Notes: generated by a model from the sequence alone, not told the origin. 64,000 nucleotides of DNA from Candidatus Micrarchaeota archaeon (GCA_028867435.1 JAGWGI010000001.1:19996-83995), one strand, 5' to 3'; positions 2,067 to 20,343 are shown, counted from the stretch's first letter. Translations and numbers: made by a program.

Positions 2067-2723
2067 ATGGAATATGACTTTTTGAAGTGGCTCGGGCACG
2101 CCAGCTTCGTTGTGGAGTCAGGAGGAAAGAGGATATTTGTAGACCCGTTCAGATTGCCAAAAAACGCAGGATATGCAGACATAATCTTCATAACCCACCC
2201 GCACTTCGACCATCTCAGCGAGGCTGATATAACAGGGATTGCAGACGGCCAAACGCACTTTGTTGCGCCTGAAGATGCCGCGAAGAAACTAGATTACAAG
2301 AACATCACTTTAGTGGGGCCAGGTGATAAGGGAGCTGTACTTGGGATAGATTTCGAGGCAGTGAGCGCATATAATGTAAAGCCAGAGAGGCAAAATTTCC
2401 ACCCAAAGAGTAGCGGCTGGGTCGGGTACATAATAACTGTGGAGGGAAAGAGGATATACCATCCTGGAGACACAGACCTGATTGAGGAGATGAAGGGAAT
2501 AGACGTGGATCTTGCACTCATCCCGTGCGGCGGCAAATACGTGATGGACATAGACGATGCGATACGTGCTACTGGGATTATAAAGGCAGGGCATTACGCA
2601 CCCATCCACTACAAGGCGATCGTCGGGAAGGACGGTGCGGCGGCAATAGAGAAGAAATTTAGGGAGAGCGTTAGGAACAGCATAATATTAAAGGAGGAGG
2701 GGGAGGCCTACTATTCCTTCTGA
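2067..2723 (+). CDS. Metallo-beta-lactamase-fold metal-dependent hydrolase
   Basis: MEYDFLKWLGHASFVVESGGKRIFVDP..., ITHPHFDH (HxHxDH metal motif), YHPGDTD, and a late His (APIHY). Start moved to the ATG at 2067, because the track start at 1983 overlaps the divergent gene. Confidence 0.75.
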   Translation: MEYDFLKWLGHASFVVESGGKRIFVDPFRLPKNAGYADIIFITHPHFDHLSEADITGIADGQTHFVAPEDAAKKLDYKNITLVGPGDKGAVLGIDFEAVSAYNVKPERQNFHPKSSGWVGYIITVEGKRIYHPGDTDLIEEMKGIDVDLALIPCGGKYVMDIDDAIRATGIIKAGHYAPIHYKAIVGKDGAAAIEKKFRESVRNSIILKEEGEAYYSF

Positions 2724-3511
2724 AGGGATTGGGCAATCCTGCAGGCAATTAATAATAGTTCGCTTGGGGAAAGATTATACGGCCTTGACTTAAGATCGCT
2801 CCCCAGCTCTTTCACCTTTGAGAGTATCTGGCTTTTTTCCATTCCGAGTGTTGCATGAGAATCAAGGAGTGCGTTCCTAAGGCGCTTGTTCTTGTGCTGC
2901 ATCAACATCGAGATCAGCTCCAACTCCCGCTTTCTTGGAGTGTCGCTTTTTGGTTTTAGGTATATCACCGCAGAGTCCACCTTTGGCACTGGGATGAAGT
3001 TGCCCTTTGGAACATCAATTATCTTGGTCATTGAAAAGCACAGCGAACTCATCACGCTCAGCCTGGAATACTTCTCTGTCCCTGGCTTTGCGAGCATGTG
3101 CTCCACGAACTCCTTCTGCAGGCAGAGCACTGCCTCGATCTTTTTGGAGAGCAGCCACTCTATCACCTTGCTGGACAGATTATACGGGACGTTGGAGATC
3201 ATTATCTGGGTGTCGGATACGCGAAGCTCCTCGTCGCTTGCCTTGAAGAAGTCCTTGTTGAGGAGCAGGAGCTTTCTGGATTTGAGCTCCACCTTTAGGA
3301 GCCTGTAGAGGTTCTGGTCCTTCTCTATTGCAACAACGCGAGAGGCATGTTTGCATAGTTCCCTTGTCAGCATGCCGTACCCTGGGCCAATCTCGATCAC
3401 GTTCTTCCCGTAGGCGTGCACAGCCTCGGCCTTTGCTATGAACTGGTTGTTTAGGAAGTTCTGCCCCAGAGCCTTTATCGGCTTTGAATATAGGTATGTC
3501 TTGGCAAGCAT
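2711..3511 (-). CDS. ksgA: 16S rRNA (adenine-N6,N6)-dimethyltransferase KsgA/Dim1
   Basis: LGQNFLNNQFIAKA, VIEIGPGYGMLTREL (SAM motif I), VVAIEKD, ISNVPYNLSS. The ATG at 3511 is preferred over the GTG at 3517. Confidence 0.9.
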   Translation of the reverse strand: MLAKTYLYSKPIKALGQNFLNNQFIAKAEAVHAYGKNVIEIGPGYGMLTRELCKHASRVVAIEKDQNLYRLLKVELKSRKLLLLNKDFFKASDEELRVSDTQIMISNVPYNLSSKVIEWLLSKKIEAVLCLQKEFVEHMLAKPGTEKYSRLSVMSSLCFSMTKIIDVPKGNFIPVPKVDSAVIYLKPKSDTPRKRELELISMLMQHKNKRLRNALLDSHATLGMEKSQILSKVKELGSDLKSRPYNLSPSELLLIACRIAQSLQKE

Positions 3512-3519
3512 TGTCACAC

Positions 3520-3609
3520 ATAACGGAATCCGCTGATAACCCTTTTAAGCGTTAATGTGCTATCATAACGGAATCCGCTGATAACCCTTTTAAGCGTTAA
3601 TGTGCTATC
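3520..3609. repeat. Perfect 45-bp tandem duplication (2 copies) in the divergent ksgA/pilin promoter region
   Basis: ataacggaatccgctgataacccttttaagcgttaatgtgctatc occurs at 3520-3564 and again, identical and directly abutting, at 3565-3609. Each copy carries a TATA-like cttttaag. Confidence 0.95.
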
Positions 3610-3624
3610 CTATTGTCTGGTTAA

Positions 3625-4665
3625 ATGAAGCTGCAGTCGTCTATAGAGTTCCTCCTGACATACAGCTTCCTCTTCCTGCTGGTCGGAGTGATAATGAGCT
3701 TTTTGTTCTTCTTCGCAACTGCGCCAAAGGCGATCATACCCTCTTCATGTCAGGCAAACGGCGGGATTCAGTGCAATACTGCAATAGACTACGTGAACCA
3801 AAGCGGGGGATATTCGCTCATCACCATCTCGCTTTCAAACATGCAATCCGTGCCGATAAATCTGAGCGGAGTGCAGGTCACGATAAACACGGCAAACAGC
3901 ATAGCGGGGGGCTGCGTGCCATTTGTATTGTATCCGGGGCAGAGCGCAACCTGCATAGCAGCTATGACCCAGACGCCCACGGCACAGAGCACTGTGAACG
4001 GCTTCTTCTCCGTAAACGCGCTTTACTGCAACAGCGGCCTGCTGAACCTGGCCAACGGCTGTATAGGGGGCACTAATGTGCAGTACGGGGGCTCATTCTC
4101 CATAACTGCGATTCAGCAAAAAACCCTGGTATTCTCAGTGCAGGTGGGGCAGAGCCCCACAACCCAGCAGTCGCCCATCTACCCGGCAAGCCCGCTTTCG
4201 ATGCCAGGCGGATACATAAACGTGCAGAATGGAGAGGTCACCGCGCTTGCCAACGGCTATGGATTTGGCACTGCCAACTACATAAACCAGCGCCATGTCA
4301 ACCTGATAGTTGGACCTTTTCCGAGCTCGGTCTCTGCCCTGAATGCAAAGACTGCTTGCAGCGGAATCTACAACACTACCTATTCCATAGCTAGCACTGC
4401 GATCTACGTGCCTGCGGCAAAGCCATCAAGCCCTGTGATAAACGCATATGCCGACAATGGCATGGAGGTCTTCTATCGCACCTCATCGAAGGTATGGAGC
4501 AACGTGCTTGACGGTTCTTTGTGGAGCCCGGCCACTGGAGTGGGAACTGCCGGGCCAGATACAATCACCCTGAGCACTGGCGCAGTCAATTATCTTGCGA
4601 TAGACTGGTATAACAGTTGCGGCGACGGGGTTCAGATGCTGAGCATACATGGGCTGACAGGCTAG
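3625..4665 (+). CDS. Archaeal type IV pilin-like secreted protein
   Basis: The N-terminus MKLQSSIEFLLTYSFLFLLVGVIMSFLFFF is a short leader, then Q-x-S-x-E-F-L, then a hydrophobic helix (class III prepilin-type signal). The rest is sequon-rich and secreted. The C-terminal ~120 aa (ADNGMEVFY...YLAIDWYNSCGDGVQML) is only vaguely PA14-like. Confidence 0.55.
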   Translation: MKLQSSIEFLLTYSFLFLLVGVIMSFLFFFATAPKAIIPSSCQANGGIQCNTAIDYVNQSGGYSLITISLSNMQSVPINLSGVQVTINTANSIAGGCVPFVLYPGQSATCIAAMTQTPTAQSTVNGFFSVNALYCNSGLLNLANGCIGGTNVQYGGSFSITAIQQKTLVFSVQVGQSPTTQQSPIYPASPLSMPGGYINVQNGEVTALANGYGFGTANYINQRHVNLIVGPFPSSVSALNAKTACSGIYNTTYSIASTAIYVPAAKPSSPVINAYADNGMEVFYRTSSKVWSNVLDGSLWSPATGVGTAGPDTITLSTGAVNYLAIDWYNSCGDGVQMLSIHGLTG

Positions 4666-6071: not shown

Positions 6072-6707
6072 ATGCTCGCTGAACTCTCGGTTGCATTCTC
6101 TTCCCTGATCGCGCCGCTCACAGGCACATATGCGAGCATAAACACATTTGTGGGAGCCTATGGATATCTTGCGATCTTCATACTGATGGCACTTGAGTAC
6201 GCATCGCTTCCGATACCAAGCGAGATTGTGCTGCCACTGATAGGTCTGTTTGCAGCGCGCGGTACGCTTGGGTTCCTCCCTGCGCTGCTTGTAGTAGCAC
6301 TTGCCGGGCTTGTAGGTATGGGAATAGACTATTTCATAGCCTATTACCTGGGGAAGGATGTAGTGTACAAACACGCATCAATGTTCCACATAAAGAAGCA
6401 ACAACTAGACGATTTTGACGCCTGGTTCTCGCGCAACGGCAGCTTTGCTGTGTTCATAGCAAGGCTAATACCTGTGGCAAGAGGGCTTGTCAGCTTCCCC
6501 GCTGGGTTTGCAATGATGAATAAGCGCGCATTTTTTCTCTACTCTTTTGCAGGCGCCCTGATCTGGGATGTTGCGCTCATGCTCTTTGGTTACTATGGGC
6601 TCTCTTCAAGCAGCGTGTCTGTTACAATAAGCGCCATTGCAATCTTTGCAGTGGCGATATACATTATTTACAGGCTTGCCCTATCTGGCATAAGAAAAAG
6701 GAAGTAG
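6072..6707 (+). CDS. DedA/SNARE-associated family membrane protein
   Basis: YGYLAIFILMALEYASLPIPSEIVLPLIG, ARLIPVARGLVSFPAG, multiple TM helices. Confidence 0.8.
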   Translation: MLAELSVAFSSLIAPLTGTYASINTFVGAYGYLAIFILMALEYASLPIPSEIVLPLIGLFAARGTLGFLPALLVVALAGLVGMGIDYFIAYYLGKDVVYKHASMFHIKKQQLDDFDAWFSRNGSFAVFIARLIPVARGLVSFPAGFAMMNKRAFFLYSFAGALIWDVALMLFGYYGLSSSSVSVTISAIAIFAVAIYIIYRLALSGIRKRK

Positions 6708-6860
6708 AATGGTTTGCACAGACGCATGGCATAAGCACAACTCATCAGTTGCAGGGGCCGAATTTAGGCAGTAAGGAATGGGGCGCATATGCAATATTGC
6801 ACATTAAATATGTCGTAATATGCAAAATCATTAAATATTAGATAGTATAGTATATTTAAT

Positions 6861-8153
6861 ATGGCAGATTCTATAGCCCAAATATTAAGAAGGCAAATGA
6901 GCGAGTTTCAGCTTATCTACTCCTCAGACGGGATAATAAAGAGGGACAACCAGGCAACTCTCTCTAAAAACATAGATAACGCATTAGTAAAAGTGATTGT
7001 AGGGGTCAGAAGGAGCGGCAAGTCTACACTAGCCACTCTGCTGCTAGAAGGCAGGACTTTTGCCTACGCAAATTTTGATGAAAAGGGATTGACGGGCATC
7101 AACCTAGATGAACTGCTTTCTTTCCTAAAGGAAGTGTACGGTAATGCAAAGATAATATTTCTCGACGAAATCCAGAATGTGGACAGGTGGGAGCTGTGGG
7201 TTAACAGCATAAAGCGTCTTGGATACGATCTCATCATAACAGGATCAAACGCAAACATGCTAAGCAAAGAACTGGCAACGCACCTTACCGGCAGGTATGT
7301 GCAGTTTGAAGTGTTTCCATTCAGTTTCGCAGAATATCTACGCCTCAACAGGCTCGATGCGGCAAAGCTCAGGGACGAAGGCAGAGAGGGCGAACTAAAG
7401 AACGCACTGGAGCGTTATATGAAAAGTGGCGGATTTCCAGAGTTGGTGGCAAAGAATCTCGACCAGAGCTATCTTAAGACGATTGCTGGCGACATAATCT
7501 ACAAGGACATAGTGCTCAGATGGAATGTGCGGCACATGTCAGAACTTGACAGCGTGGCGAGCTATCTCGCATCGATATGCTCCTCAGAGTTTACAGCAAC
7601 TAAACTAGCGCATTCCCTAAATATGAAGAGTGCGATAACCGCTCAAAAGTACTGCAACTACCTGCACGAAGCTTATCTCTTTTTCTATCTTAAAAGGTTC
7701 TCTTTCAAGGCAAAAATCAGGGAGAAAGCTCCAAGGAAGGTATACTCAATCGATACAGGAATTATATCTGCCATAGGAACAAAGTTCGCCCCTGATTCTG
7801 GCAGGCTCATTGAGAATTTAGTGTTCCTTCAATTACGAAGAATGAACATGGTCGAGAATCAGAATCTCTTTTATTATAAGGACGTGGCAGGAAAAGAGGT
7901 TGACTTTGTAATAAAAGAGGGGCTGGCAGTTACCCAGTTAATACAGACTACATACGCATCGAGCAGAGAGGAGGTACAAAAAAGGGAGATTGCAGCACTC
8001 CTAAAGGCTGCCAAAGAGCTGAAATGCGATAAGCTTACAATCATAACCTGGGATTATTCAGCCACCGAGAAAATCGAAGGGCACACAATACAATTTGTAG
8101 CGTTGTGGGGATGGCTTATTCAAAACGATTTTGCCCAGAAACGTTTGGCATGA
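6861..8153 (+). CDS. AAA-type ATPase with C-terminal DUF4143-like domain
   Basis: Walker A VGVRRSGKSTL, Walker B IIFLDEIQNV, C-terminal GKEVDFVI module. Confidence 0.75.
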   Translation: MADSIAQILRRQMSEFQLIYSSDGIIKRDNQATLSKNIDNALVKVIVGVRRSGKSTLATLLLEGRTFAYANFDEKGLTGINLDELLSFLKEVYGNAKIIFLDEIQNVDRWELWVNSIKRLGYDLIITGSNANMLSKELATHLTGRYVQFEVFPFSFAEYLRLNRLDAAKLRDEGREGELKNALERYMKSGGFPELVAKNLDQSYLKTIAGDIIYKDIVLRWNVRHMSELDSVASYLASICSSEFTATKLAHSLNMKSAITAQKYCNYLHEAYLFFYLKRFSFKAKIREKAPRKVYSIDTGIISAIGTKFAPDSGRLIENLVFLQLRRMNMVENQNLFYYKDVAGKEVDFVIKEGLAVTQLIQTTYASSREEVQKREIAALLKAAKELKCDKLTIITWDYSATEKIEGHTIQFVALWGWLIQNDFAQKRLA

Positions 8154-8205
8154 GTGCCGCTCCTACCCAATTGCCGTTGAACTTCGGAGCTAGCTATCTA
8201 CGCCT

Positions 8206-9084
8206 TTAAGATATACCATCTTTGGATAAGAGTTTGCTGAATTTCTGCGTGACACTTTTTCTGAGGTTATATGTGTTTGCAAATCTTGCGTATGCCAGCC
8301 AGCCGTCCAGGCTTTTCGAGGCATCTTCATTAGTCATTAGGCCGTCCTGACACCTCTTTGTGAATACCTCTAGGCGCTTCCATATCCTCCTTGCATTGCT
8401 TTTCTTGAGCAGCTTGTAGTCTCGGAAAACCCTGAATCCTAGGAAGGTTATCCCTGCGTGCAGGGGGAGTATCTTTGTCTTTTCCTTGTGCAGCTCTATA
8501 TCGAGGCTTGAGCTGAGAAAATTATCTATGTCCGCCCGCCATTTCTCAAGACGGCCCTTATCGTTATCAAAGATCACAAAATCGTCTACGTATCTAATGT
8601 AATGCTTTGCCTTCAGGGTGTGCTTGACGAACTGATCAAGTTCGCCGAGGTATACGTTTGCGAAAAACTGGGAGGTGAGATTGCCTATTGGCATTCCCTT
8701 CCCTTCTATTTCAGATTTGTGATTCGCCAATATTATCCGTATAAGCTGCATGACCTGTGGATCTGCTATCTTATGGCCGACAATTTTTAACAAAATGCCA
8801 TGGTCTACGGTATCGAAATAATGGCGTATGTCGGCTTTCAGCGCAAATCCCGCGATGCGGCTTGCTTGCATGCGGGCGGTTTTTCTCATAAAAAACGCCG
8901 CTCTCCTTAGCGCTTTGTGGGTTCCTTTCCCATTCTGATTTGCAAAGGAATCATAGATAAATCCCTTCTCAAGAATCGGCGAGATTATGTTGCACAGGGC
9001 ATGATGCACAACCCCGTTCCTGTACTGTCGTCGCGCTGTCTTCTTCTCTTGTTCCTTGTAAGTGTGTCTTCGAGCTAGACGCAT
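8206..9084 (-). CDS. Reverse transcriptase, diversity-generating retroelement (DGR) type, possibly N-terminally truncated
   Basis: YVDD catalytic box (IRYVDDFVIF). The DGR-diagnostic motif 4 is PIGNLTSQFFANVYL, where group II introns have QGxxxSP. Also HHALCNIISPILE, NGKGTHKAL, ADIRHYFDTVDH and FLGFRV. The frame is closed by a TAA about 20 codons upstream of the ATG. Confidence 0.8.
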   Translation of the reverse strand: MRLARRHTYKEQEKKTARRQYRNGVVHHALCNIISPILEKGFIYDSFANQNGKGTHKALRRAAFFMRKTARMQASRIAGFALKADIRHYFDTVDHGILLKIVGHKIADPQVMQLIRIILANHKSEIEGKGMPIGNLTSQFFANVYLGELDQFVKHTLKAKHYIRYVDDFVIFDNDKGRLEKWRADIDNFLSSSLDIELHKEKTKILPLHAGITFLGFRVFRDYKLLKKSNARRIWKRLEVFTKRCQDGLMTNEDASKSLDGWLAYARFANTYNLRKSVTQKFSKLLSKDGIS

Positions 9085-9100
9085 CAGAAAAAGAAAATGA

Positions 9101-9421
9101 TCACTTCTTTGCAGGCTTTTCCTCCTTGTAGGTTATGGTGTGGTTCTTGACTATCTTTATTATCTGGTCAATTGCCCTTCGTATGTCGGCCTCAGTCTTT
9201 GCCCCAGTGCAGATGATCTTTCCGTTCTTGAAGAGAAGAAGCGCTGCCTTTGGCTCCTTTATCTTGCAGATTGCGCCTGGGAACTGCTCAGGCTCGTAGT
9301 CGATGTCGCTCGAGGCCTTTGCTATTCCGTAGAGATCTAGGTCTATTCCAAGGTCTGCGCTCGCTACTATGTTCTCGACCCTGAATTCCGGGCGCAATAT
9401 GGACTTGCCGTTCTTGGGCAT
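9101..9421 (-). CDS. Single-repeat TATA-binding-protein-like protein (half TBP)
   Basis: 106 aa. RVENIVASADLGIDLDL...DYEPEQFPGAICKIKEPKAALLLFKNGKIICTGAKTEADIRRAIDQII matches one TBP repeat end to end. No second repeat follows; the protein ends in a basic tail, KEEKPAKK. Confidence 0.7.
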   Translation of the reverse strand: MPKNGKSILRPEFRVENIVASADLGIDLDLYGIAKASSDIDYEPEQFPGAICKIKEPKAALLLFKNGKIICTGAKTEADIRRAIDQIIKIVKNHTITYKEEKPAKK

Positions 9422-9507
9422 TTAATCACTTGTATAGATACCATGAAAGCTATTTATATATATTGATGGCTAATTAGAGTGTCTAAAGTTTTTGATAACG
9501 TGAGCAT

Positions 9508-9795
9508 ATGGCACCAAGGTCACACGGTCTATTTATCGGCAGGACAAGGCACCTTGCAAGGCACCATAAGCCCTCAAAGCTGGGCCTTACCACCCTGATA
9601 AAGAACTTCAGCGTAGGCGACAAGGTTGCGATAGTGCCAAAAGGAAGCTTTCGGGACATACCACACCCAAGGTACAGGGGAAGGATAGGCGAAATAATAG
9701 AGAAGAGGGGAGATGCCTACGTGGTTGAGGTGTCTGTCTCAAAATCCACTATAAGAAAGATCATAGTCCCGCAAAGGCATCTGGAAAAACCATAA
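9508..9795 (+). CDS. rpl21e: Ribosomal protein L21e
   Basis: SHGLFIGRTRH...FSVGDKVAIVPKGSFRDIPHPRYRGRIGEIIEKRGDAYVVEV. Confidence 0.9.
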   Translation: MAPRSHGLFIGRTRHLARHHKPSKLGLTTLIKNFSVGDKVAIVPKGSFRDIPHPRYRGRIGEIIEKRGDAYVVEVSVSKSTIRKIIVPQRHLEKP

Positions 9796-9821: not shown

Positions 9822-10445
9822 TTAGGATGGTTTAATCCTCGTTTCTGCAGCTTGGTCAAATTTTTGCCTTGTTATTTGTATTATAGATTCCGTAAGCTGA
9901 TACTCTTTCTTCTTTACGCCTTTGTATATTGCCTGCAGGTCGGCATCGCTTGCCCAGTTATATTTAATATAGGCAATCTGCTTATTGAGCTCATGAATCC
10001 TATCCTTTGCTTCATTAATCTCTGACATGCCAACCAGGCTACCTTTATAGCTGTCGAACATGCAGCCCGAAATTACCGAGCCGCCGCCTACCGCGAAAAC
10101 GCCAACTAGTGTGGCCTCCTCATATCTATGGGTTATTGCCGCCATGATGCCAACTGCAGTCAAGGGAACAAGCATCGGAGTTAGAAGGGCAGGATATAGA
10201 ATCACGTCCGCAGCTGCGCCTGAGATCGTGGAGATTTTTTCCTTCTTTAACACCTTTATGCTCCCCGAAAGGTCCTTTTCTATTCCCCGCCTAATCTGCT
10301 TTAGCATGAATTTTGACAGGCTATACTCTAGGTGCTTGCCCGTAAGGATGCCGGATATTTTTGCCGCGTTATTCGGGGCATGAATTATACGATCGATGTG
10401 GGACTCTAGTATGCTCTTCTGCCTCTCTGTTTGGAGTTGTGGCAT
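9822..10445 (-). CDS. Hypothetical membrane protein (helical N-terminal region, central TM hairpin, C-terminal coiled coil)
   Basis: ORF only. Hydrophobic core ILYPALLTPMLVPLTAVGIMAAI...VGVFAVGGGSVISG. Same architecture as the neighbouring ORF 10532..11134. Confidence 0.45.
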   Translation of the reverse strand: MPQLQTERQKSILESHIDRIIHAPNNAAKISGILTGKHLEYSLSKFMLKQIRRGIEKDLSGSIKVLKKEKISTISGAAADVILYPALLTPMLVPLTAVGIMAAITHRYEEATLVGVFAVGGGSVISGCMFDSYKGSLVGMSEINEAKDRIHELNKQIAYIKYNWASDADLQAIYKGVKKKEYQLTESIIQITRQKFDQAAETRIKPS

Positions 10446-10531
10446 ATAACCACAGATACTATGATTTTCCGCCTTTAAATACGTGATTCATGACTTCGTT
10501 TCAGCGGGAAATTTTACGAGAATTAGTGGCT

Positions 10532-11134
10532 TTATTCCCTTTCCAGCTTTCTCCTTGCGGCGTTGATTATCCGGTCGAGGATCTCCTTGTCCTTTTGAAT
10601 TATTCCGTTTATCACCGCTTGCGATTCGATGTCTTTTTGCCAGCGTTGCTCAACTTGGCTTATTTTTGCCTTTACTCCTTTGAGAGAAACGGTGAGCTCG
10701 GTTATTATTCCGTACTGGCTTACTGGGCGGGTTTTTGCCATTGTAATCAGAAATACGGTCCCGCTGGCGGCTATGCCAGCGACGTCATAGATCAGAAGCC
10801 CGTGAACCTGCAGGTTTGATAGGGCTTCAACCAGAAGCGCCAAGGGGCCTAATGATAGCAATCCGAAAGGCAGCGAGAGCTTTGCTATCGCGATTGACTT
10901 TGTCTCTGAGAGCTTCTTCTCTTCCCTCTTGATTTCTTTGAGCTCCCTGAGAAGGTCGTTTTTTATGTGCTTGACTATGTGGTTGCCCAGACGCTTTTGC
11001 ACAGCATTGTAGCTTTTTCTGCCGCCTTTTGATAACAGCGCCTCTATCTCGGAGGCGTGCTCAGGCATTGATAGTATTTCCTCTACTTTGATCCTTATTA
11101 TCCCTCCTATCTTCTCCTTGCTTGCATGCCTCAT
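10532..11134 (-). CDS. Hypothetical membrane protein, architectural paralog of 9822..10445
   Basis: ORF only. Hydrophobic core LSLPFGLLSLGPLALLVEAL...IYDVAGIAASGTVFLI, flanked by charged helical segments. Confidence 0.45.
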   Translation of the reverse strand: MRHASKEKIGGIIRIKVEEILSMPEHASEIEALLSKGGRKSYNAVQKRLGNHIVKHIKNDLLRELKEIKREEKKLSETKSIAIAKLSLPFGLLSLGPLALLVEALSNLQVHGLLIYDVAGIAASGTVFLITMAKTRPVSQYGIITELTVSLKGVKAKISQVEQRWQKDIESQAVINGIIQKDKEILDRIINAARRKLERE

Positions 11135-11809: not shown

Positions 11810-12388
11810 TTAGAAGTGGGGCTTGCCATAAGGCCTTGTGAGCAGATAGAACCTGCTCTCCCCCTTTAGCTCAACTATTATCCTATCTGTTAGAAGCTTG
11901 ATCGGGTCCTGGAGCAGAGGCACCCTCTGCGAGATATCTGCAAAGCTCTCAAATGGCTTCTCTTCCCTTGCCTTGATTATTGCCTGCAAATGCTTCTTGC
12001 CTATGCCAGGAAGCAGCTCTAGCGCGTGCTCCCTTATGTTTATTGGGCCAGCCTTGTTGAATGCGTCCACGAACTTCTGCTCGTTCCTTCCTATGATCTC
12101 TGGAATCAGGTGCTGCAGCTCATTCCTCGAGCCTTCTGTAATCTCTGAGTAGTTGAGCCTTGAGCGTATGAGCGCTATCTTATCCCGATCGCCCTTGCCT
12201 ATGTAAACCCTATCGCCAACCTTGAGCTCTGCACCAGGCTTTGGCACTGCCTCAAGAAGCGTAAACTTGTTTTCCCCGAGGAGCACTGTTACAGGCTCGC
12301 TCTTTGCAGAGCCGGACTTGCCAGTAGGCAGATAGTCGAGGACTACTGCATATTCCTCGAGTTCTTCCTTTCTCTCAAATTCCGGCAT
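11810..12388 (-). CDS. DUF655/COG1491-type nucleic-acid-binding protein (OB-like N-terminus plus helix-hairpin-helix)
   Basis: EYAVVLDYLPTGKSG...VTVLLGENKFTLLEA and the HhH segment LELLPGIGKKHLQAIIKAREEKPFESFADI. Start set at the ATG at 12388, because the track start at 12490 overlaps rpoF. Confidence 0.75.
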   Translation of the reverse strand: MPEFERKEELEEYAVVLDYLPTGKSGSAKSEPVTVLLGENKFTLLEAVPKPGAELKVGDRVYIGKGDRDKIALIRSRLNYSEITEGSRNELQHLIPEIIGRNEQKFVDAFNKAGPINIREHALELLPGIGKKHLQAIIKAREEKPFESFADISQRVPLLQDPIKLLTDRIIVELKGESRFYLLTRPYGKPHF

Positions 12389-12416
12389 ATATACATCCCA
12401 TACCCTGGTCTTAGGC

Positions 12417-12755
12417 CTACTTCCCCCTGTACTTCCCAACAGCCTCGAAAGCCTTCTTGACAACCTCGTCTTCAATGGGATTCTTCTCAATAAGCAGTAC
12501 GTTCCTGAGCTGGACCTCTGTTACTGGGAGGATCTCGGAGATCTTTGTAGAGGTCTTCTTGCTTATCCCCAGCTCCTCTAGCTCCTCTGAGAGCTTGTTT
12601 GCCTTCTCCACACTGAGCACTGTGAACTTCTTTGCGTGGTCATAGGCTATCTGTTGTTCGTATCCCAGCTCGCCCGCCTTCTTGCGCTCTTCGAGAATCT
12701 CCAAGGTTTCGGAGAGTGAGATTGGCCTGCTTTGCGTTACTTCCTTTCCTATCAT
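12417..12755 (-). CDS. rpoF: DNA-directed RNA polymerase subunit Rpo4/F
   Basis: 112 aa. ISLSETLEILEERKKAGELGYEQQIAYDHAKKF...ISEILPVTEVQLRNVL. Sits upstream of the DUF655 gene, as in many archaea. Confidence 0.8.
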   Translation of the reverse strand: MIGKEVTQSRPISLSETLEILEERKKAGELGYEQQIAYDHAKKFTVLSVEKANKLSEELEELGISKKTSTKISEILPVTEVQLRNVLLIEKNPIEDEVVKKAFEAVGKYRGK

Positions 12756-13755: not shown

Positions 13756-15396
13756 TTAGGAAACGCTGACATGCACGTAATCTACTGCGCTGTTCCCGAA
13801 GCCGTCAACCGCATCTATTGAGATCGTGTAGTTTCCTGGCTGCGAGTATGCGTGGGTGCAAGACAACTCGCACTGCTGCAGATTTGAAGTTGTAGGGGCG
13901 TTGGGATCGCCCCATGCGATTGTGGTTTGCTGCGCATTAATCTGCGCCTTCTGGCCGAATGTATTGACTGCATTTGCCCAGATGTTGCCGCTCAGGCTAA
14001 CTGTGGAGTTGCTCATGCTGGCAGTGACTGCTATAGAGGGCTTGGCAAAGTATCCGGTTAGATTGGAAGTGGATGATGAACCATTTACCAGAGTGGTGGG
14101 GTAGAGTGATTGCTGATTCGTGTTCCCGAAGCTGTCTACAGCATGCACGGTTATTGTGTAGGTTCCGGCTTTGGAATAGGCATGGCTGCACTGGGTCTCG
14201 CACTGCGCCATTGTCGAGTTTGTGAGGTTGTTTGGGTCGCCCCAGTAAATGGTGGTCTGCTGGGTGTCGATGCTGGCCAAGGCGCCGCTTGAATCCACTG
14301 CATTGGCCCAGATATTCCCGTTTATGGAGACTGTGTCGCCTGAAACGCTTGCGTTAACATCTATCGATGGCTTTGCACCGTTTTGTGAGAGGACGGAGTT
14401 GGAACCTACAGTAACCTGGATCTGCTTTAAGCTGCTATCGCCGAAACTGTCTAGTGCGGAGATGGTTATGGTGTAGTTTCCTGTCTGTGCGTAGGAATGG
14501 GAGCAGTACGAATCGCATTGGGCAAGGGTGGAATCTGTGGAATTTTGCGGATCTCCCCAGGAGATTGTGGTCGCCTGATTGTTCATTGTTGCCTTGACCC
14601 CCTGCGAATTTACCGCACTGGCATAGATGCTGCCGTTTAGGGCCACAAGATTTGCGGCAACCTGATAGCTGAGATGTATTGTAGGAGGGGCAGAACTGCT
14701 AGAGAAGTTGCTCACCAAGACATGCAGTGACTTTGCACTGCTATAGTTTAGGCTATCAATTGCAAATATCTCTATCTGGTAGTTGCCTGCTTGGGAGTAC
14801 ACGTGAGCGCAGTACGAATAGCATTGGGAGAGGGTGGTGTTGGTGCTGTTGCTTTGGTCTCCCCATGAGATATGACTCGCCTTCGCATTCATTGTGGCGG
14901 GCACGCCGTTGGGGCCAATAGATCTTGCGAAGATGTTTCCATCTATGCTTACAAAGGTTCCAGAAACATTTGTGCTCACCTGTATAGCTGGAGGCGTGGA
15001 ACTACCCGATGAGGTGTTCTGGGATAGAATGGAGATGTTTATGTACTCGTGATTGATGTTGCCGAGGCTATCTACCGCGTCTATGAATATTGTGTAGTTG
15101 CCCGGCTGGGGATAAGTGTGCCCGCAGTAGGCCTCGCACTGCTCAAGCGTGGTGACTGTTACATTGTTAGGGTCGCCCCAGGAGATGGTGGTGTCCTGCA
15201 AATTCATCGATGCTGCCGCACCTGTGGCATTTACTGCGGTTGCATAGATGTTCCCACTAAGGCTCACCGTGTCAGCTGAAAGGCTTGTGCTGACAGTTAT
15301 TGCTGGTGGGGAGTTGCTCGCTGCGAAAGCTGCTGGAACTAGAAGCAAGAACGAAAGTAAAAATGCCAGCCTTTTGATGTTCGATGCATTCATCAA
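13756..15396 (-). CDS. Secreted protein with 5 PKD-like repeats
   Basis: Signal peptide MMNASNIKRLAFLLSFLLLVPAAFA. Five modules of the form ...T(I/H)(S/Y/A)WGD(P/Q)xN...QC(E/D/Y)x(Y/Q/S)C(G/A/S/T)H(T/V/S/A)Y(P/S/A)(Q/K)(P/A/T)G(N/T)Y(T/Q)I...D(S/G)(L/F)(G/N). Confidence 0.75.
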   Translation of the reverse strand: MMNASNIKRLAFLLSFLLLVPAAFAASNSPPAITVSTSLSADTVSLSGNIYATAVNATGAAASMNLQDTTISWGDPNNVTVTTLEQCEAYCGHTYPQPGNYTIFIDAVDSLGNINHEYINISILSQNTSSGSSTPPAIQVSTNVSGTFVSIDGNIFARSIGPNGVPATMNAKASHISWGDQSNSTNTTLSQCYSYCAHVYSQAGNYQIEIFAIDSLNYSSAKSLHVLVSNFSSSSAPPTIHLSYQVAANLVALNGSIYASAVNSQGVKATMNNQATTISWGDPQNSTDSTLAQCDSYCSHSYAQTGNYTITISALDSFGDSSLKQIQVTVGSNSVLSQNGAKPSIDVNASVSGDTVSINGNIWANAVDSSGALASIDTQQTTIYWGDPNNLTNSTMAQCETQCSHAYSKAGTYTITVHAVDSFGNTNQQSLYPTTLVNGSSSTSNLTGYFAKPSIAVTASMSNSTVSLSGNIWANAVNTFGQKAQINAQQTTIAWGDPNAPTTSNLQQCELSCTHAYSQPGNYTISIDAVDGFGNSAVDYVHVSVS

Positions 15397-15429
15397 CCAA
15401 ACCTAAATCAACCAAACTTAAATCCAACT

Positions 15430-18400
15430 TTAACCGGGAACACTTACTTGCAGGTACTGCTGGTTCGTGTTTCCAAGGTTGTCCACTGCTTCCACGGTAA
15501 TAGTGTAGTTGCCAGCCTGAGAGTAGGTGTGGCTGCACGATCCTGATTCGCATACTGCAAGAGTCATGGCAGTTAGGTTATTTGGATCTCCCCAGTATAT
15601 CTTGGTTCCCTGGGTGTTCATGACCGCACTCGCCCCGCCCTGACTTACTGCAGTTGCATAAATGTTCCCGCCCAGAGAAACAGTATATCCTGACGTGGCT
15701 GCACTAACCTGTACCACAGGAGCCGCGTTAGGGTTTCCGGAAACTGTAGTCGTAGAAGTGGTGTTTGCTTGGGAGGAAGAAGAGGCGGTAATGTATACGT
15801 TAATGTACTTCTGTGCCGTGTTTCCAAAGTTGTCAACCGCCTCCACTGTTATAGTATACGACCCAGGCTGGGAGTAGTAGTGTCCGCAGTATGAGTAGCA
15901 CTGGGTCAAGGTGGTGGCGGTTAGGTTGTTCTCATCGCCCCAGTAGACCTTTGTGTTCTGGCTGTTGATTGAAGCAGACGTTCCGTTGTATCCGACTGCA
16001 TTTGCCCAGATGTTGCCGCCCAATTGCGCCATCTGACCAGAGGTGCTGGTCACACTCACCTGTATCGAGGGCTGGGCGTTAGGATTTGCATTGGCAAAGG
16101 TGGTGTTTGAGGAGGATCCAGAGGAGGTGGATACGTTTGGCACTCGCACAGATAGGAACTGCTGTTGCGTGTTGTTGAAGCTGTCTATTGCTTCTATGGT
16201 TATGGTGTAGGCACCTGATTGCGAATAATAGTGGCTGCAGTATGTGGCGCACTGGGCCATTGTTGTGGTTGATAGGTTGTTTGGGTCGCCCCAGTAGATC
16301 TTGGTGCCCTGTGTGTTCATCACTGCGTCAGTTCCGGATTGCGTTGAAGCCGAGGCATAGATGTTGCCGCTAAGGCTCACGAGATATCCTATCGTGCTTG
16401 TAGAAATGACTATTATCGGCTTGGAAGTCGCATTGTAGTAAGTGCTATTGGCAGATGCGCATGGAAGAAACGGGTTGCCGCATCCCGGCACGGATCCAGA
16501 GTTGCCAGAAGTGCTAGATGAGGCTGAAGAGGATACAGTAACAGTAAGCTCATTCTGAGCGGTGTTGCGAAGGCTGTCTATCGCCTCTATTGTTATGATG
16601 TAGGTGCCTGATTGCAAGTAGGTGTGTCCGCAGTATGTAGCGCACTGGGCCATTGTTGTTGTGCTCAGGTTGTTTGGGTCATCCCAGTATATCCTCGTGC
16701 CTTGGGTGTTCATCACTGCATTCTGGCCGTTGGTACCTACGGCATTGGAGTAGATGCTGCCATTTAGAGTCACGGTGGCTCCAGATACATTTGCGGCAAC
16801 GGAAATTGTCGGTGGAAGCGTTGGGTTTGGAATCGAGCCCTGGCTTCCTGAGGTGGTGCTGCCAGAACTATTAGAGGGGATCGTAATTGGTATTGGCTTT
16901 TGGGCGGTGTTGCCTAGATTGTCTAATGCCACAATGGTTATGATATAGTTGCCTGGCTGCGAGTACTGGTGTCCGCAGTATGTGGCGCACTGGGCCATTG
17001 TTGTTGTGCTCAGGTTGCTTGGATCGCCCCATGAAACCTTGGTCTCCTGTGTGTTCATAACCGCTGGTGTTCCGCTGCTGCTTACCGCCTTTGCATAGAT
17101 ACTGCCGTTGAGCTGCACCACGTTTCCAGTGAATGCCGCGGTTACCTCTATTACAGGAGGAGCAGTAGGGCTGGTCTGGGATGAAGAAGATGCGGTGCTT
17201 CCGCTAGAAGAGCTTGATGGTACCGTTGCCTGAAGCGATGCGTAGTTCTTGTTGCCGAAGCTGTCTACTGCAACTATCCCTATAGTATATGTTCCCTTTG
17301 AGGAATATGTGTGGTTGCAGGAACCTGCTTCACACTCTTGTAGTGTGGTAGTTGTGAGGTTGTTGTGGTCTCCCCAGGAGATTATGGTGTTCTGTGTGTC
17401 CATTGTGGCCTTGCCGCTTATTTTCTGTGCGTTGGCGTAGATGTTGCCATTTAGGGATACGGTATAGCCTGTTGTGCTTGTAGTAACCGAGATTGTGGGA
17501 ACTGAAGAGGGGCCGGTGGTAGCACTGGTGCCTGAACTTGAGTTTGTGCTTGAGGAGCCACCAGAAGTGCTGCCAGAGTTTGATGGAACCATGACATGGT
17601 AGATGTACTGGTTAGAGTCGCCCGCATTGTCAGTTGCAGTGACAGTGAGGTTATATATGCCAGCAGACTGCGGGTAGGTGTGAGTGAAGTGCGCAGGACA
17701 GCTATAGCTAGATGTGCTGGGCAGCGTGGCATTCACCCCATATCCTGATTGGACCTGCATGGTATAGGTATCGTATCCTGCAATTTTCTGATCTCCCCAT
17801 GACCACTGTATCAGTTGGAGCTGCGCGCCGACTGCGTTTGTGTAGATGCTGCAGGTAAATGCTGCTGTGTATCCGCTTATGCTTGCCCCCACATTCATTG
17901 TGACTCTTGAGCTGTTTGGATTCGTTGGGCCATTTGGTACTGTAGTTGAATAAGAGCCGACCTGCGCTGTCATCGATGCCACGTTTGTGTTTCCTGCGGT
18001 ATCTATGGCGGCTATGGAGATTGTGAAGTTGCCGGGAAGTGGATAGGTGTGGCTGCATGCACTGCGCTCGCACTGGTAGAAGGTCTCAGGAGTGCTGTTG
18101 GACGTGTCGCCCCAGTAGATGAACGTGTGGTTAGCTGCTATTGCGGCCTTCTGCCCCTTCTGAGGTCCGTACTGCAGCAGTGCATTGGTGTAGATCTCAC
18201 CATTGAGCGTGACTGTCTGGCCGCTTATGGCAGGAGTAACCTGAATGATCGGGTTTGTTGAGGATGGCGCTGTTGTCGATCCTGTCGATGTACAAGAACC
18301 TGAAGCGCCCTGAGGCACTGTTATTGGCAGAGTAACGCTGTTCCTGTTGCCTTTGTTGTCCACCCCAATTACCCTGACATTAAATGTACCCTGGCTGCTG

Positions 18401-19326
18401 TAGACAAATGTGCAGTTGGAGCTCAGGCAGGATGTTGCAGTGTTATTCTGGTCCCCCCAGTAAACCAAAATCGAGGAGATGGCAGTCGCGCCTGATCCTG
18501 AAGCAGGGTATATGTTGCCGTTTAGGGTCACTGATTCTCCTCCATTGTAGCATGGAGTTATCGACATGACGGGCAGGTACTGGCCCGAAGGCCCAAGACC
18601 TGGAGGCGGCTCGATATCGACGTTGAACTTGGTTGTGTTGGTGTTGGCGTTGCTGTCCTTGACATTTATTGTAATCGGATAGTTCTGGTACTGCGTATAT
18701 GCATGGCTTATCGTGCTTGGCGCAGCGCTGGAATTTGAGGTGCTTGAGCCATCGCCCCATGAAACTATGTATGAAGTTATCTGGGCCCTCTGGTTCCTGT
18801 AGTTGTACCCTCCAGATGCATAACCTGTGAGCGAGATATTGAGGTTGCTAAGGCTAGCTACAGAGTAGGAGATGATAGGGATTTGCGATGGCGAGGTGGT
18901 TGCCTGGTTGTTTATGTTTACAGACTCAAGCGTGGATGCCGAGTTCCCAATGTTGTCGTAGGCGGTTATCCGGACTATGAAATCTCCGTTTGAGGTATAA
19001 GTATGACTCTGGGGGAAGAACCCTGATGTTGTCTGGCCATCACCCCAGTTCCAGTTGATGTATGCAATATTTGTGGCCTGTGAAGCTGTAGGCGATGCGC
19101 TTCCGCTTATGCTCACGGAGCTGATAGATATCTGCGGGGAGCCTGCGGAAATTGTCGGAGAGCCAGAGAACGAGGCTGCAGATGCCGTGCCAACCAGAAG
19201 CATAATTAATGCAATTGGGATAATTGGCGCAGCCTTGATGCCGTAGATGTTGCGCGCAAACAGATCTTCCCCAAGATTCCCATTTTTATCCATAGTAGTA
19301 TTGTGGTTATTCTGGTTTATAAACAT
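15430..19326 (-). CDS. Giant secreted protein with about 11 PKD-like repeats
   Basis: N-terminal hydrophobic signal (IIPIALIMLLVGTASAAS). I count 11 W(G/D)D-centred modules, separated by Ser/Thr-rich linkers. The C-terminal ~6 modules closely resemble those of 13756..15396. Confidence 0.75.
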   Translation of the reverse strand: MFINQNNHNTTMDKNGNLGEDLFARNIYGIKAAPIIPIALIMLLVGTASAASFSGSPTISAGSPQISISSVSISGSASPTASQATNIAYINWNWGDGQTTSGFFPQSHTYTSNGDFIVRITAYDNIGNSASTLESVNINNQATTSPSQIPIISYSVASLSNLNISLTGYASGGYNYRNQRAQITSYIVSWGDGSSTSNSSAAPSTISHAYTQYQNYPITINVKDSNANTNTTKFNVDIEPPPGLGPSGQYLPVMSITPCYNGGESVTLNGNIYPASGSGATAISSILVYWGDQNNTATSCLSSNCTFVYSSQGTFNVRVIGVDNKGNRNSVTLPITVPQGASGSCTSTGSTTAPSSTNPIIQVTPAISGQTVTLNGEIYTNALLQYGPQKGQKAAIAANHTFIYWGDTSNSTPETFYQCERSACSHTYPLPGNFTISIAAIDTAGNTNVASMTAQVGSYSTTVPNGPTNPNSSRVTMNVGASISGYTAAFTCSIYTNAVGAQLQLIQWSWGDQKIAGYDTYTMQVQSGYGVNATLPSTSSYSCPAHFTHTYPQSAGIYNLTVTATDNAGDSNQYIYHVMVPSNSGSTSGGSSSTNSSSGTSATTGPSSVPTISVTTSTTGYTVSLNGNIYANAQKISGKATMDTQNTIISWGDHNNLTTTTLQECEAGSCNHTYSSKGTYTIGIVAVDSFGNKNYASLQATVPSSSSSGSTASSSSQTSPTAPPVIEVTAAFTGNVVQLNGSIYAKAVSSSGTPAVMNTQETKVSWGDPSNLSTTTMAQCATYCGHQYSQPGNYIITIVALDNLGNTAQKPIPITIPSNSSGSTTSGSQGSIPNPTLPPTISVAANVSGATVTLNGSIYSNAVGTNGQNAVMNTQGTRIYWDDPNNLSTTTMAQCATYCGHTYLQSGTYIITIEAIDSLRNTAQNELTVTVSSSASSSTSGNSGSVPGCGNPFLPCASANSTYYNATSKPIIVISTSTIGYLVSLSGNIYASASTQSGTDAVMNTQGTKIYWGDPNNLSTTTMAQCATYCSHYYSQSGAYTITIEAIDSFNNTQQQFLSVRVPNVSTSSGSSSNTTFANANPNAQPSIQVSVTSTSGQMAQLGGNIWANAVGYNGTSASINSQNTKVYWGDENNLTATTLTQCYSYCGHYYSQPGSYTITVEAVDNFGNTAQKYINVYITASSSSQANTTSTTTVSGNPNAAPVVQVSAATSGYTVSLGGNIYATAVSQGGASAVMNTQGTKIYWGDPNNLTAMTLAVCESGSCSHTYSQAGNYTITVEAVDNLGNTNQQYLQVSVPG

Positions 19327-19477
19327 TCAGTCAAGATTTGTACTGGGAACGATGCCAGTTAGTGGTGGAAATTAATCATGTCCTGCATCCGGGTGGGGCA
19401 GAGAATAGCAAGGTATTTAAATTAATGCGAGTATATAAAGTCATAAATTGGGCCGTTGCATGTATGTATTTGAGAAA

Positions 19478-19867
19478 ATGAGGCTGCTTGTTATGCTCGT
19501 CTTCCTTGTGGGAATGACGACTACGGTACTTGCAGCCATAGGCTCAGGTAGCAACGGCGGCGGCGGAAACCCATCTACAGCTACAGGAGCTCAGGTAGGC
19601 ACTCTGACCTCACAGCTATGCGGGATAGTCAATGGCGTCAGGACCATTATAGGAGTTCTCGCTCTGGTCATGTTCCTTGTTGGGGGAGTCCTCTACTCTG
19701 CCGCGCACTTCATGCCTGCTGCCGGTCAGATAAAGGCAAACATGCAGGGATGGTCCATGGGAATGATACTCGGAGCTGTTGTCGGAGTGATACTGGTAAT
19801 ACTTGCACCGATAATCGTGAACCACCTGATTTCATTCGACTCTAGCATCACTACTGTGGCCTGCTAG
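19478..19867 (+). CDS. VirB2/TrbC/CedA1-like two-helix pilin candidate (copy A)
   Basis: Signal peptide MRLLVMLVFLVGMTTTVLAA. Helix 1 is LCGIVNGVRTIIGVLALVMFLVGGVLY, the loop is SAAHFMPAAGQIKANMQG, and helix 2 is WSMGMILGAVVGVILVILAPIIV. The last residue is Cys. The track start at 19448 is a TTG; ATGs lie at 19460 and 19478. Confidence 0.55.
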   Translation: MRLLVMLVFLVGMTTTVLAAIGSGSNGGGGNPSTATGAQVGTLTSQLCGIVNGVRTIIGVLALVMFLVGGVLYSAAHFMPAAGQIKANMQGWSMGMILGAVVGVILVILAPIIVNHLISFDSSITTVAC

Positions 19868-19929
19868 ATTTTTGCCACTTTGGCAAGGTTTTATCTATCT
19901 TCTAATCCCAAGATATTTGGGTATTTTTG

Positions 19930-20343
19930 ATGACTGCCCTGAACTTCAGGCTATTTTGCACCATTGCAATAATCGTGCTTGCGGTAGGTGTTTTCGCCGC
20001 TGCTCCGGCGCCTGTAATAGGGCCTGGACTTAATACGACAAGCAGCACTGGAGGGGCTACTACAAATGGGATCTCAACGCTCACCTCCCAGCTATGCGGC
20101 ATAGTTGCAGGAGTGAGGACCGTCATAGGGGTTGTGGCCCTTGTAATGTTCCTTATAGGTGGAATACTTTATTCCATAGCGCACTTCATGCCTGCTGCCG
20201 GTCAGATAAGATCGAATATGCAGGGATGGTCCATGGGAATGATCTTCGGGGCGGTTGTCGGAGTGGTTCTGGTTCTGCTCGCTCCGATAATAATAAACCA
20301 CCTGCTCGCATTCGGAAACGGGATCTCGATTCCACAGTGCTAG
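19930..20343 (+). CDS. VirB2/TrbC/CedA1-like two-helix pilin candidate (copy B)
   Basis: Paralog of copy A: LTSQLCGIVAGVRTVIGVVALVMFLIGGILYSIAHFMPAAGQIRSNMQGWSMGMIFGAVVGVVLVLLAPIIINHL. Also ends in Cys. Confidence 0.55.
   Translation: MTALNFRLFCTIAIIVLAVGVFAAAPAPVIGPGLNTTSSTGGATTNGISTLTSQLCGIVAGVRTVIGVVALVMFLIGGILYSIAHFMPAAGQIRSNMQGWSMGMIFGAVVGVVLVLLAPIIINHLLAFGNGISIPQC

Follow-up and report, generated by a model that had tools for sequence, protein, structure and literature searches.

Does a lone TATA-binding protein (TBP) repeat, encoded immediately beside a reverse transcriptase (RT) gene in a Candidatus Micrarchaeota genome, serve its host as a genuine TBP, or is it a fragment or an accessory of the neighboring retroelement? 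TBP is otherwise understood as a two-repeat, pseudo-symmetric monomer that arose from a duplicated single-repeat ancestor; the homodimeric precursor is hypothetical (PMC3597702, PMC12917281, PMC5501381). Archaeal TBP is generally monomeric (PMC5501381), and a monopartite TBP prototype is likewise treated as hypothetical (PMC12917281). The gene considered here lies in a 64,000-nucleotide stretch of DNA, called the window below. For this gene, a first-pass annotation had offered three readings: a homodimerizing mini-TBP representing the ancestral state of the fold, a paralog truncated by the same rearrangement that clipped the RT, or a nucleic acid-binding accessory co-opted by the retroelement.

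9101..9421, (-) strand: class A single-repeat TBP gene, 106 amino acids, one full TBP repeat between short Lys-rich N- and C-terminal tails

From the analyses presented below, we consider it likely that this open reading frame (ORF) is the tbp gene of its lineage in single-repeat form, termed class A, and predict that its product acts as a dimer of single-repeat subunits. The protein is identical in sequence to NCBI entry KGH61_00965 (P0241), and this exact protein occurs in three near-identical Candidatus Micrarchaeota MAGs (e.g. GCA_028867195.1, contig JAGWGV010000003.1), where the order TBP-RT-ATPase is the same. That the ORF encodes one complete TBP repeat, as first proposed, is evident from the single match of the Pfam TBP model PF00352 (E 1.8e-29), which spans residues 12-93 and covers profile positions 1-84 of 85. 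A phmmer search of the PDB matches the archaeal TBPs 2z8u and 1pcz (E 4e-44 to 1e-43). The absence of a second repeat downstream in any frame, also claimed at first reading, extends to the whole 64-kb window, because a phmmer search of all six-frame fragments (E<=10) recovers only the ORF at 9101..9421 itself. Two tandem repeats per polypeptide are absent from this ORF, and all class A loci examined likewise encode one repeat.

The predicted fold is that of a TBP repeat. An AF2 monomer model built from a 48-sequence alignment has a mean pLDDT of 84.5 and the topology S1-H1-S2-S3-S4-S5-H2, and in a Foldseek search against the PDB the top 44 matches are all TBPs, most with an rmsd of about 0.8-1.7 Å over 77-88 aligned columns. 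Residues N17, F47, F64 and T72, together with the segment D41-Y-E-P-E-Q-F-P-G49, do not vary among the 48 aligned sequences of classes A and B (class B, a second single-repeat family, is described below). Judged at the level of sequence, the protein therefore retains the DNA-kinking Phe pair (F47 in FPG, F64 in LLLF) and the minor-groove Asn and Thr (N17, T72). The segment DYEPEQFPG has the form of an acidic stirrup of the E-x-E-Q/L-F-P-G type and is predicted to bind TFB/TFIIB.

These properties place the protein close to canonical archaeal TBPs such as those of M. jannaschii (2Z8U) and P. woesei (1PCZ/1AIS), with which it shares 45-55% identity per repeat, superposition of the AF2 model at about 1 Å, the stirrup (EYEPEQFPG in the canonical proteins), two Phe per repeat, the minor-groove Asn and Thr, and a gene at the same locus as the tbp of other Micrarchaeota. 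Unlike them, it has one repeat per chain and must oligomerize to form a saddle, and the class A lineage has two distinct single-repeat paralogues per genome. Its tails are also basic rather than acidic. The basic tail noted in the first-pass annotation is real, as evident by a pI of 9.08 (19 K+R versus 15 D+E) and by Lys-rich tails at both termini. Finally, the protein falls far below the cut-offs of the NCBIfam TBP models, scoring 67-99 bits against thresholds of 181-347 (e.g. 98.8 versus 278). Because class A proteins score below these full-length TBP cut-offs, their genes are annotated by NCBI as ‘hypothetical protein’.

The proposed closeness to the C-terminal repeat of canonical TBPs finds no support on comparison, since N and C repeats match the window protein about equally by bit score, identity and HMMs. 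The two repeats of 2z8u score 78.0/74.8 bits against it, and those of 1pcz 72.9/77.0 bits (phmmer), and mean identity to the 50 nearest two-repeat TBPs is 54% for N repeats and 51% for C repeats, reaching at most 62%. With N and C HMMs built from two-repeat TBPs less similar to the query (mostly from Woesearchaeota and euryarchaeal MAGs), the difference for class A is -0.2 bits. No N-like or C-like character is detected in class A by HMMs or identity, nor in class B by HMMs.

The most conspicuous feature of the locus is the RT gene, which was reported to start 16 nt downstream of the TBP gene; the spacing is confirmed, with positions 9085-9100 separating the TBP stop from the RT start. The elements on this side of the TBP gene are as follows.

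6072..6707, (+) strand: VTT/DedA-domain membrane protein gene, the direct convergent neighbor of class A tbp in relatives

6708..9100, no strand: lineage-specific insertion of ~2.4 kb, flanked by the 3′ ends of tbp and the VTT-domain gene

6861..8153, (+) strand: PDC-S01/AAA_14-DUF4143 ATPase gene inside the insertion, matching the PADLOC candidate defense family PDC-S01 (E 2e-106)

8206..9084, (-) strand: 5′-truncated RT gene of apparent DGR type, inside the insertion and co-oriented with tbp

Homology of the window to four related loci (L001, L011, L013, L007) is lost between about 6680 and 9091-9146, and in relatives the VTT gene directly follows tbp. The best PDB match of the RT is 8ub7_A, a 328-aa ‘Reverse transcriptase’ (E 1.9e-39) that we take to be the DGR RT of a Bordetella phage. 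The protein carries a YVDD motif and the sequence IGNLTSQ, which conforms to the IGxxxSQ motif typical of DGR RTs. Its homologues are mostly 340-375 aa in length, and alignment with an 82%-identical relative (P0266) pairs window residue 14 with residue 73, such that about 60 N-terminal residues are missing; in addition, a DRVV motif is changed to NGVV. A search for DGR template/variable-repeat-like repeats of the insertion finds none within the window. [quoted passage not shown] The window RT is probably the dead remnant of a DGR.

Could the TBP repeat be a nucleic acid-binding accessory of this element? Its gene has the expected position, since DGR cassettes carry the gene for the accessory protein Avd ahead of the RT gene, and a small, basic, co-oriented product encoded 16 nt upstream of the RT mimics this arrangement. 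An Avd-like protein, unlike class A, would show conserved linkage to a DGR RT and a template repeat. The RT is present at only one of 19 class A/A2 loci, that of the window’s own lineage (L010), and is absent from the other 18. It resides within the lineage-specific insertion and has lost its N-terminal region and DRVV motif, no template/variable-repeat-like repeat accompanies it in the window, and the fold of its small neighbor is that of TBP and not a four-helix bundle. A role as retroelement accessory thus has next to no probability, and the Avd-like position of the TBP gene is a coincidence.

The same facts bear on the idea that the TBP gene is a paralog truncated by the rearrangement that clipped the RT. 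This candidate was rejected because orthologues of 93-130 aa occupy the same locus in relatives that lack the RT, and these are under strong purifying selection. With the RT found at one of 19 loci, inside a lineage-specific insertion and truncated, both the co-truncation and the retroelement-accessory readings are refuted. The RT is a damaged passenger within a recent insertion, functionally unconnected to the TBP gene. The first-pass annotation had suggested a survey of related genomes for single-repeat TBP ORFs and their linkage to RT genes; such ORFs do recur widely, but the linkage does not.

The elements on the other side of the TBP gene are as follows.

9508..9795, (+) strand: ribosomal protein L21e gene (Pfam PF01157, E 3.4e-15), the conserved divergent neighbor of tbp

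11810..12490, (-) strand: DUF655 gene, completing with Rpo4 the conserved block DUF655-Rpo4-L21e<>tbp

12417..12755, (-) strand: Rpo4/RpoF gene of the same block

Most of the Micrarchaeota loci examined have L21e beside the TBP gene, for single-repeat and two-repeat TBPs alike. The arrangement DUF655-Rpo4-L21e<> accompanies a single-repeat gene at class A/A2 loci L001, L002, L006-L011, L013, L015, L018, L019 and L023, and L21e is kept as a neighbor at L003, L014, L016 and L017. Across L001, L006-L009, L011 and L013-L017 the order reads MoxR-Rpo4-DUF655-L21e<>mini-TBP-VTT-Pelota. The same DUF655-Rpo4-L21e<> arrangement accompanies a two-repeat TBP in other Micrarchaeota (L004/P0015, L020, L024-L029, L035, L037-L039, L050, L054, L060 and L081, the last with no detectable Rpo4). 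Because the class A locus is the two-repeat tbp locus of other Micrarchaeota, class A is the positional orthologue of tbp, and the shared position implies that the single-repeat gene took over the site of the two-repeat gene.

The surroundings of tbp contain another lineage-specific insertion, at 9822-11134 (-), which holds two paralogous ORFs of 207 and 200 aa between L21e and an 81-aa gene; they have no Pfam match above the curated cut-off, no PADLOC match and no DNA-level match in L001. Elsewhere, the window contains a perfect 45-nt tandem duplication (3519-3608) between the divergent ORFs 2711..3517 (-) and 3625..4665 (+), and a 238-nt direct repeat (19601-20314, 79% identical) that corresponds to the adjacent paralogous ORFs 19448..19867 and 19927..20343. 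The region 13756-19326 (-) encodes two very large proteins (546 and 1298 aa) of repeated PKD-like modules of about 105-130 aa each, which share the conserved motif WGDP...C..C.H.Y...G.Y and have orthologues in L001 and L010.

Class A is a broad and well-conserved family. Among the best 120 homologues of the window protein, 69 are single-repeat proteins of 93-130 aa that are 72-97% identical to it; they derive from Candidatus Micrarchaeota MAGs and metagenomes, on contigs of up to 337 kb, and no relatives of the window protein were found in viral contigs. Mean identity within the 82-residue core is 84-86%, versus 57-59% when N repeats or C repeats from the nearest two-repeat TBPs are compared with one another, whereas the Lys-rich N- and C-terminal tails vary in length. 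When ten relatives were compared, the core dN/dS was 0.035-0.13 in the eight computable pairs, with dS from 0.8 to saturation. Class A is under strong purifying selection.

The 86-nt divergent intergenic region common to tbp and rpl21e holds a TATA-like element:

9451..9463, (-) strand: TATA-like element ATATATATAAATA followed by GCTTTCA, as read from the sequence, ending 29 nt upstream of the TBP ATG

The pattern ATATATAAATA(C/G)CTTTCA recurs in the window and at the class A genes of L001, L007, L012, L015 and L017, each time about 30-45 nt ahead of the ATG, and the element at 9451..9463 is likely the putative tbp promoter.

This conservation bears directly on whether the ORF is a pseudogene remnant or an assembly artefact in which a tandem repeat has been collapsed. 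Sporadic single-repeat forms such as that at L048 (described below) could indeed stem from assembly collapse across an identical 28-aa segment, and at L050 (5944-6646) a two-repeat TBP has a frameshifted second repeat. Class A, by contrast, is present in hundreds of independent assemblies, including the 659-kb contig CAWBCT010000005.1, which presumably belongs to a long-read MAG series. No two-repeat version of the class A sequence appears among the matches listed, dN/dS is 0.04-0.13, and the start, the stop and the upstream TATA element are conserved. An artefact or remnant is accordingly so improbable that we give it almost no weight.

A more serious alternative is that class A is an accessory or regulatory single-domain TBP paralogue that acts as a modulator, as a competitor for TATA or TFB, or as a specialized factor, while a canonical two-repeat TBP is encoded elsewhere in the genome. 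Precedent favors this explanation: the monopartite TBP-domain proteins described by Brindefalk et al. (2013), namely halobacterial TbpA and diverged Thermococcales proteins, all occur beside full-length TBPs (PMC3597702). The presence of two different mini-TBPs per genome would also fit paralogue diversification. For Micrarchaeota or DPANN, we found no literature description of a single-repeat TBP, the only report being that of Brindefalk et al. (2013) on other lineages.

Comparison with these precedents reveals how class A differs. TbpA, like class A, has a single TBP domain that clusters with genuine TBP repeats, but it closely resembles the full-length TBPs that occur beside it in its own species and is dispensable (PMC3597702), whereas class A is a positional tbp orthologue across a whole clade and has no full-length partner among the matches listed. 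The Thermococcales proteins (e.g. P. furiosus NP_578195) resemble class A in being stand-alone proteins of about 90-100 aa with a TBP-domain fold, but they are highly diverged from the TBPs of their own genomes, form their own cluster and always occur beside a normal TBP (PMC3597702). Classes A and B, in contrast, keep all TBP functional motifs.

Several further observations weigh against an accessory role. Class A occupies the ancestral tbp locus, which encodes a two-repeat protein in other Micrarchaeota, and is more conserved than two-repeat TBPs are. It is 52-60% identical to genuine TBP repeats, with all DNA- and TFB-contact motifs invariant, and stands much closer to TBP than the Thermococcales proteins do. 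A weak additional argument is that, among the 120 homologues listed, no two-repeat TBP with a named source bears the organism name of the MAGs that carry both A and B. We therefore regard an accessory paralogue as unlikely. A two-repeat TBP alongside class A was sought and none was found among the matches listed, which derive from incomplete MAGs and from which one known class A locus (JAWDMB010000003.1) is missing. There may be a Micrarchaeota clade, probably the Micrarchaeaceae, that has no two-repeat TBP at all and builds its saddle from single-repeat subunits, using class A with or without class B, and we would place the chances of this at about even.

The second paralogue, class B, is a conserved single-repeat TBP family that is 46-54% (about 52%) identical to the window protein. 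A search with a class B member returned 269 matches; the best 120 of these 269 all carry the TBP Pfam domain only, and 119 of them are no longer than 145 aa. In neighbor-joining trees (84 columns, bootstrapped), class B groups with 100% support. Its genomic neighborhood is conserved and includes genes for a thermosome, a GT4 glycosyltransferase and STT3/AglB; L033, L091 and L092 are class B loci. On contig JAKBSM010000001.1 (940 kb), class B lies instead between a FAD-dependent oxidoreductase gene and GT4-SecY. Fixed differences between A and B fall in S1, S3 (CK versus FR), S4 (ALLL versus VIIL) and H2.

Locus tags place A and B in the same MAG in four cases: RXR32 (P0050/P0121), ACP5RT (P0062/P0135), ACP5K9 (P0078/P0148) and KGH61. 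The RXR32 pair is also seen as L009 and L033 of JAWDMB01, and KGH61 is the window’s own genome, whose A and B genes are KGH61_00965 and KGH61_00585, respectively; three accession blocks match. Locus tags are shown by a minority of clusters, 11 in class A and 17 in class B, and general co-occurrence would be expected to yield four matches among them.

How might such proteins function as TBPs? Since a single repeat is half a saddle, TBP function would require a dimer. In the mechanism that we propose, two single-repeat subunits would associate along their central S1 strands to re-form the ten-stranded saddle, with each subunit contributing one TATA-kinking Phe pair and one acidic stirrup (DYEPEQFPG) competent for TFB binding. 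We infer that single-repeat TBP would bind both DNA and TFB in this manner. The partners could be two copies of class A (an A2 homodimer) or class A and the class B paralogue from the same genome (an A/B heterodimer). In Archaea it is the TFB-BRE contact, rather than TBP, that fixes the orientation of the TBP-TFB-DNA complex (PMC7289017, citing Bell et al. 1999). On this basis, a symmetric dimer whose two stirrups are identical and TFB-competent should suffice, and a fully or nearly symmetric TBP dimer would obtain its polarity from TFB and BRE.

The presence of class B in the same genome underlies the heterodimer reading. Because neither A nor B is N-like or C-like, this comparison gives no positive indication of a fixed heterodimer, and the independent recurrence of single-repeat forms at the tbp locus suggests that homodimers are viable. 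Roughly speaking, we give the A/B heterodimer somewhat less than an even chance, the A2 homodimer a slightly smaller one, and other arrangements a low probability. The conserved A and B pair may form an obligate heterodimer or may represent two alternative homodimeric TBPs.

With regard to origin, the first of the three initial readings fares best but only in part: a dimerizing mini-TBP is the best-supported function, whereas its description as the ancestral state is at odds with the two-repeat tbp at the same locus in other Micrarchaeota. All TBPs recovered from outside Micrarchaeota and their DPANN relatives are two-repeat proteins, among the matches listed. Because class A sits at the two-repeat tbp locus and all non-DPANN TBPs among the matches listed have two repeats, the single-repeat state looks secondarily derived and not ancestral.

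A surviving relic of the homodimeric ancestor that preceded duplication would be compatible with the neutrality of class A between N- and C-repeat profiles and with its high sequence conservation. DPANN archaea are also sometimes placed deep in the archaeal tree. Against a relic stand the locus that class A has in common with the two-repeat tbp of sister Micrarchaeota and the neighbor-joining tree, which groups class A with the repeats of DPANN two-repeat TBPs and not outside the N/C split of distant TBPs. Moreover, several independent single-repeat forms, including the L048 chimera, are nested in two-repeat clades, indicating that collapse happens. We therefore judge it very unlikely that class A is such a relic.

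Collapse of a two-repeat gene is the origin that we favor. Further, less conserved single-repeat forms at the tbp locus (L021, L031, L045, L048, L058 and L062) are nested in two-repeat clades in the neighbor-joining analysis. One of these, L048 (CAZLIX010000034.1, 1034-1318), is a clean chimera in which the N and C halves of a two-repeat TBP of the L004 type are combined: identity is 95% between its first half and the N repeat and likewise 95% between its second half and the C repeat, with the join inside a 28-aa segment that does not differ between the repeats. L048 may illustrate the route of two-to-one repeat collapse, or it may reflect assembly collapse, as it derives from a co-assembly MAG.

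The nearest two-repeat TBPs have N and C repeats that are 73-90% identical (P0002-P0013), a similarity that would favor recombination collapsing two repeats to one. In several DPANN two-repeat TBPs (P0002-P0013; L020, L024-L029) the repeats are either 73-90% identical or both C-like by HMM, a pattern that points to gene conversion within the gene or to a single repeat having recently been duplicated again. Such near-identical-repeat proteins (e.g. P0003, P0007, P0008) have the same sequence type as class A (FPGAI.K..PK..LLLFKNGK), C-type stirrups on both repeats and, where flanks are sequenced, the same locus; unlike class A, they are single chains with N and C repeats 73-90% identical. We propose that a two-repeat tbp with very similar repeats collapsed to one repeat at the ancestral locus, and that a later duplication would have given class B. 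Grouping of A, A2 and B as one clade is weak (58.5% support, neighbor-joining, 84 columns), and fits duplication after collapse better than fission of an N/C pair, by a test of little power.

If these interpretations are correct, DPANN archaea have changed the number of TBP repeats more than once, with two-to-one collapses by recombination of near-identical repeats and possibly one-to-two re-duplications, the latter yielding the TBPs whose repeats are 73-90% identical. Surveys of DPANN transcription machinery may also miscount essential-looking genes that are labeled ‘hypothetical protein’. An A/B pair would provide a model for how asymmetry re-evolves after duplication. Class A would furthermore be the first dimeric single-repeat TBP known from nature, a form that has long been postulated. 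A natural lineage with a one-repeat tbp orthologue would make the dimeric-precursor hypothesis testable with real proteins, including whether a symmetric dimer bends TATA, whether TFB binds on either stirrup, and whether BRE alone determines polarity.
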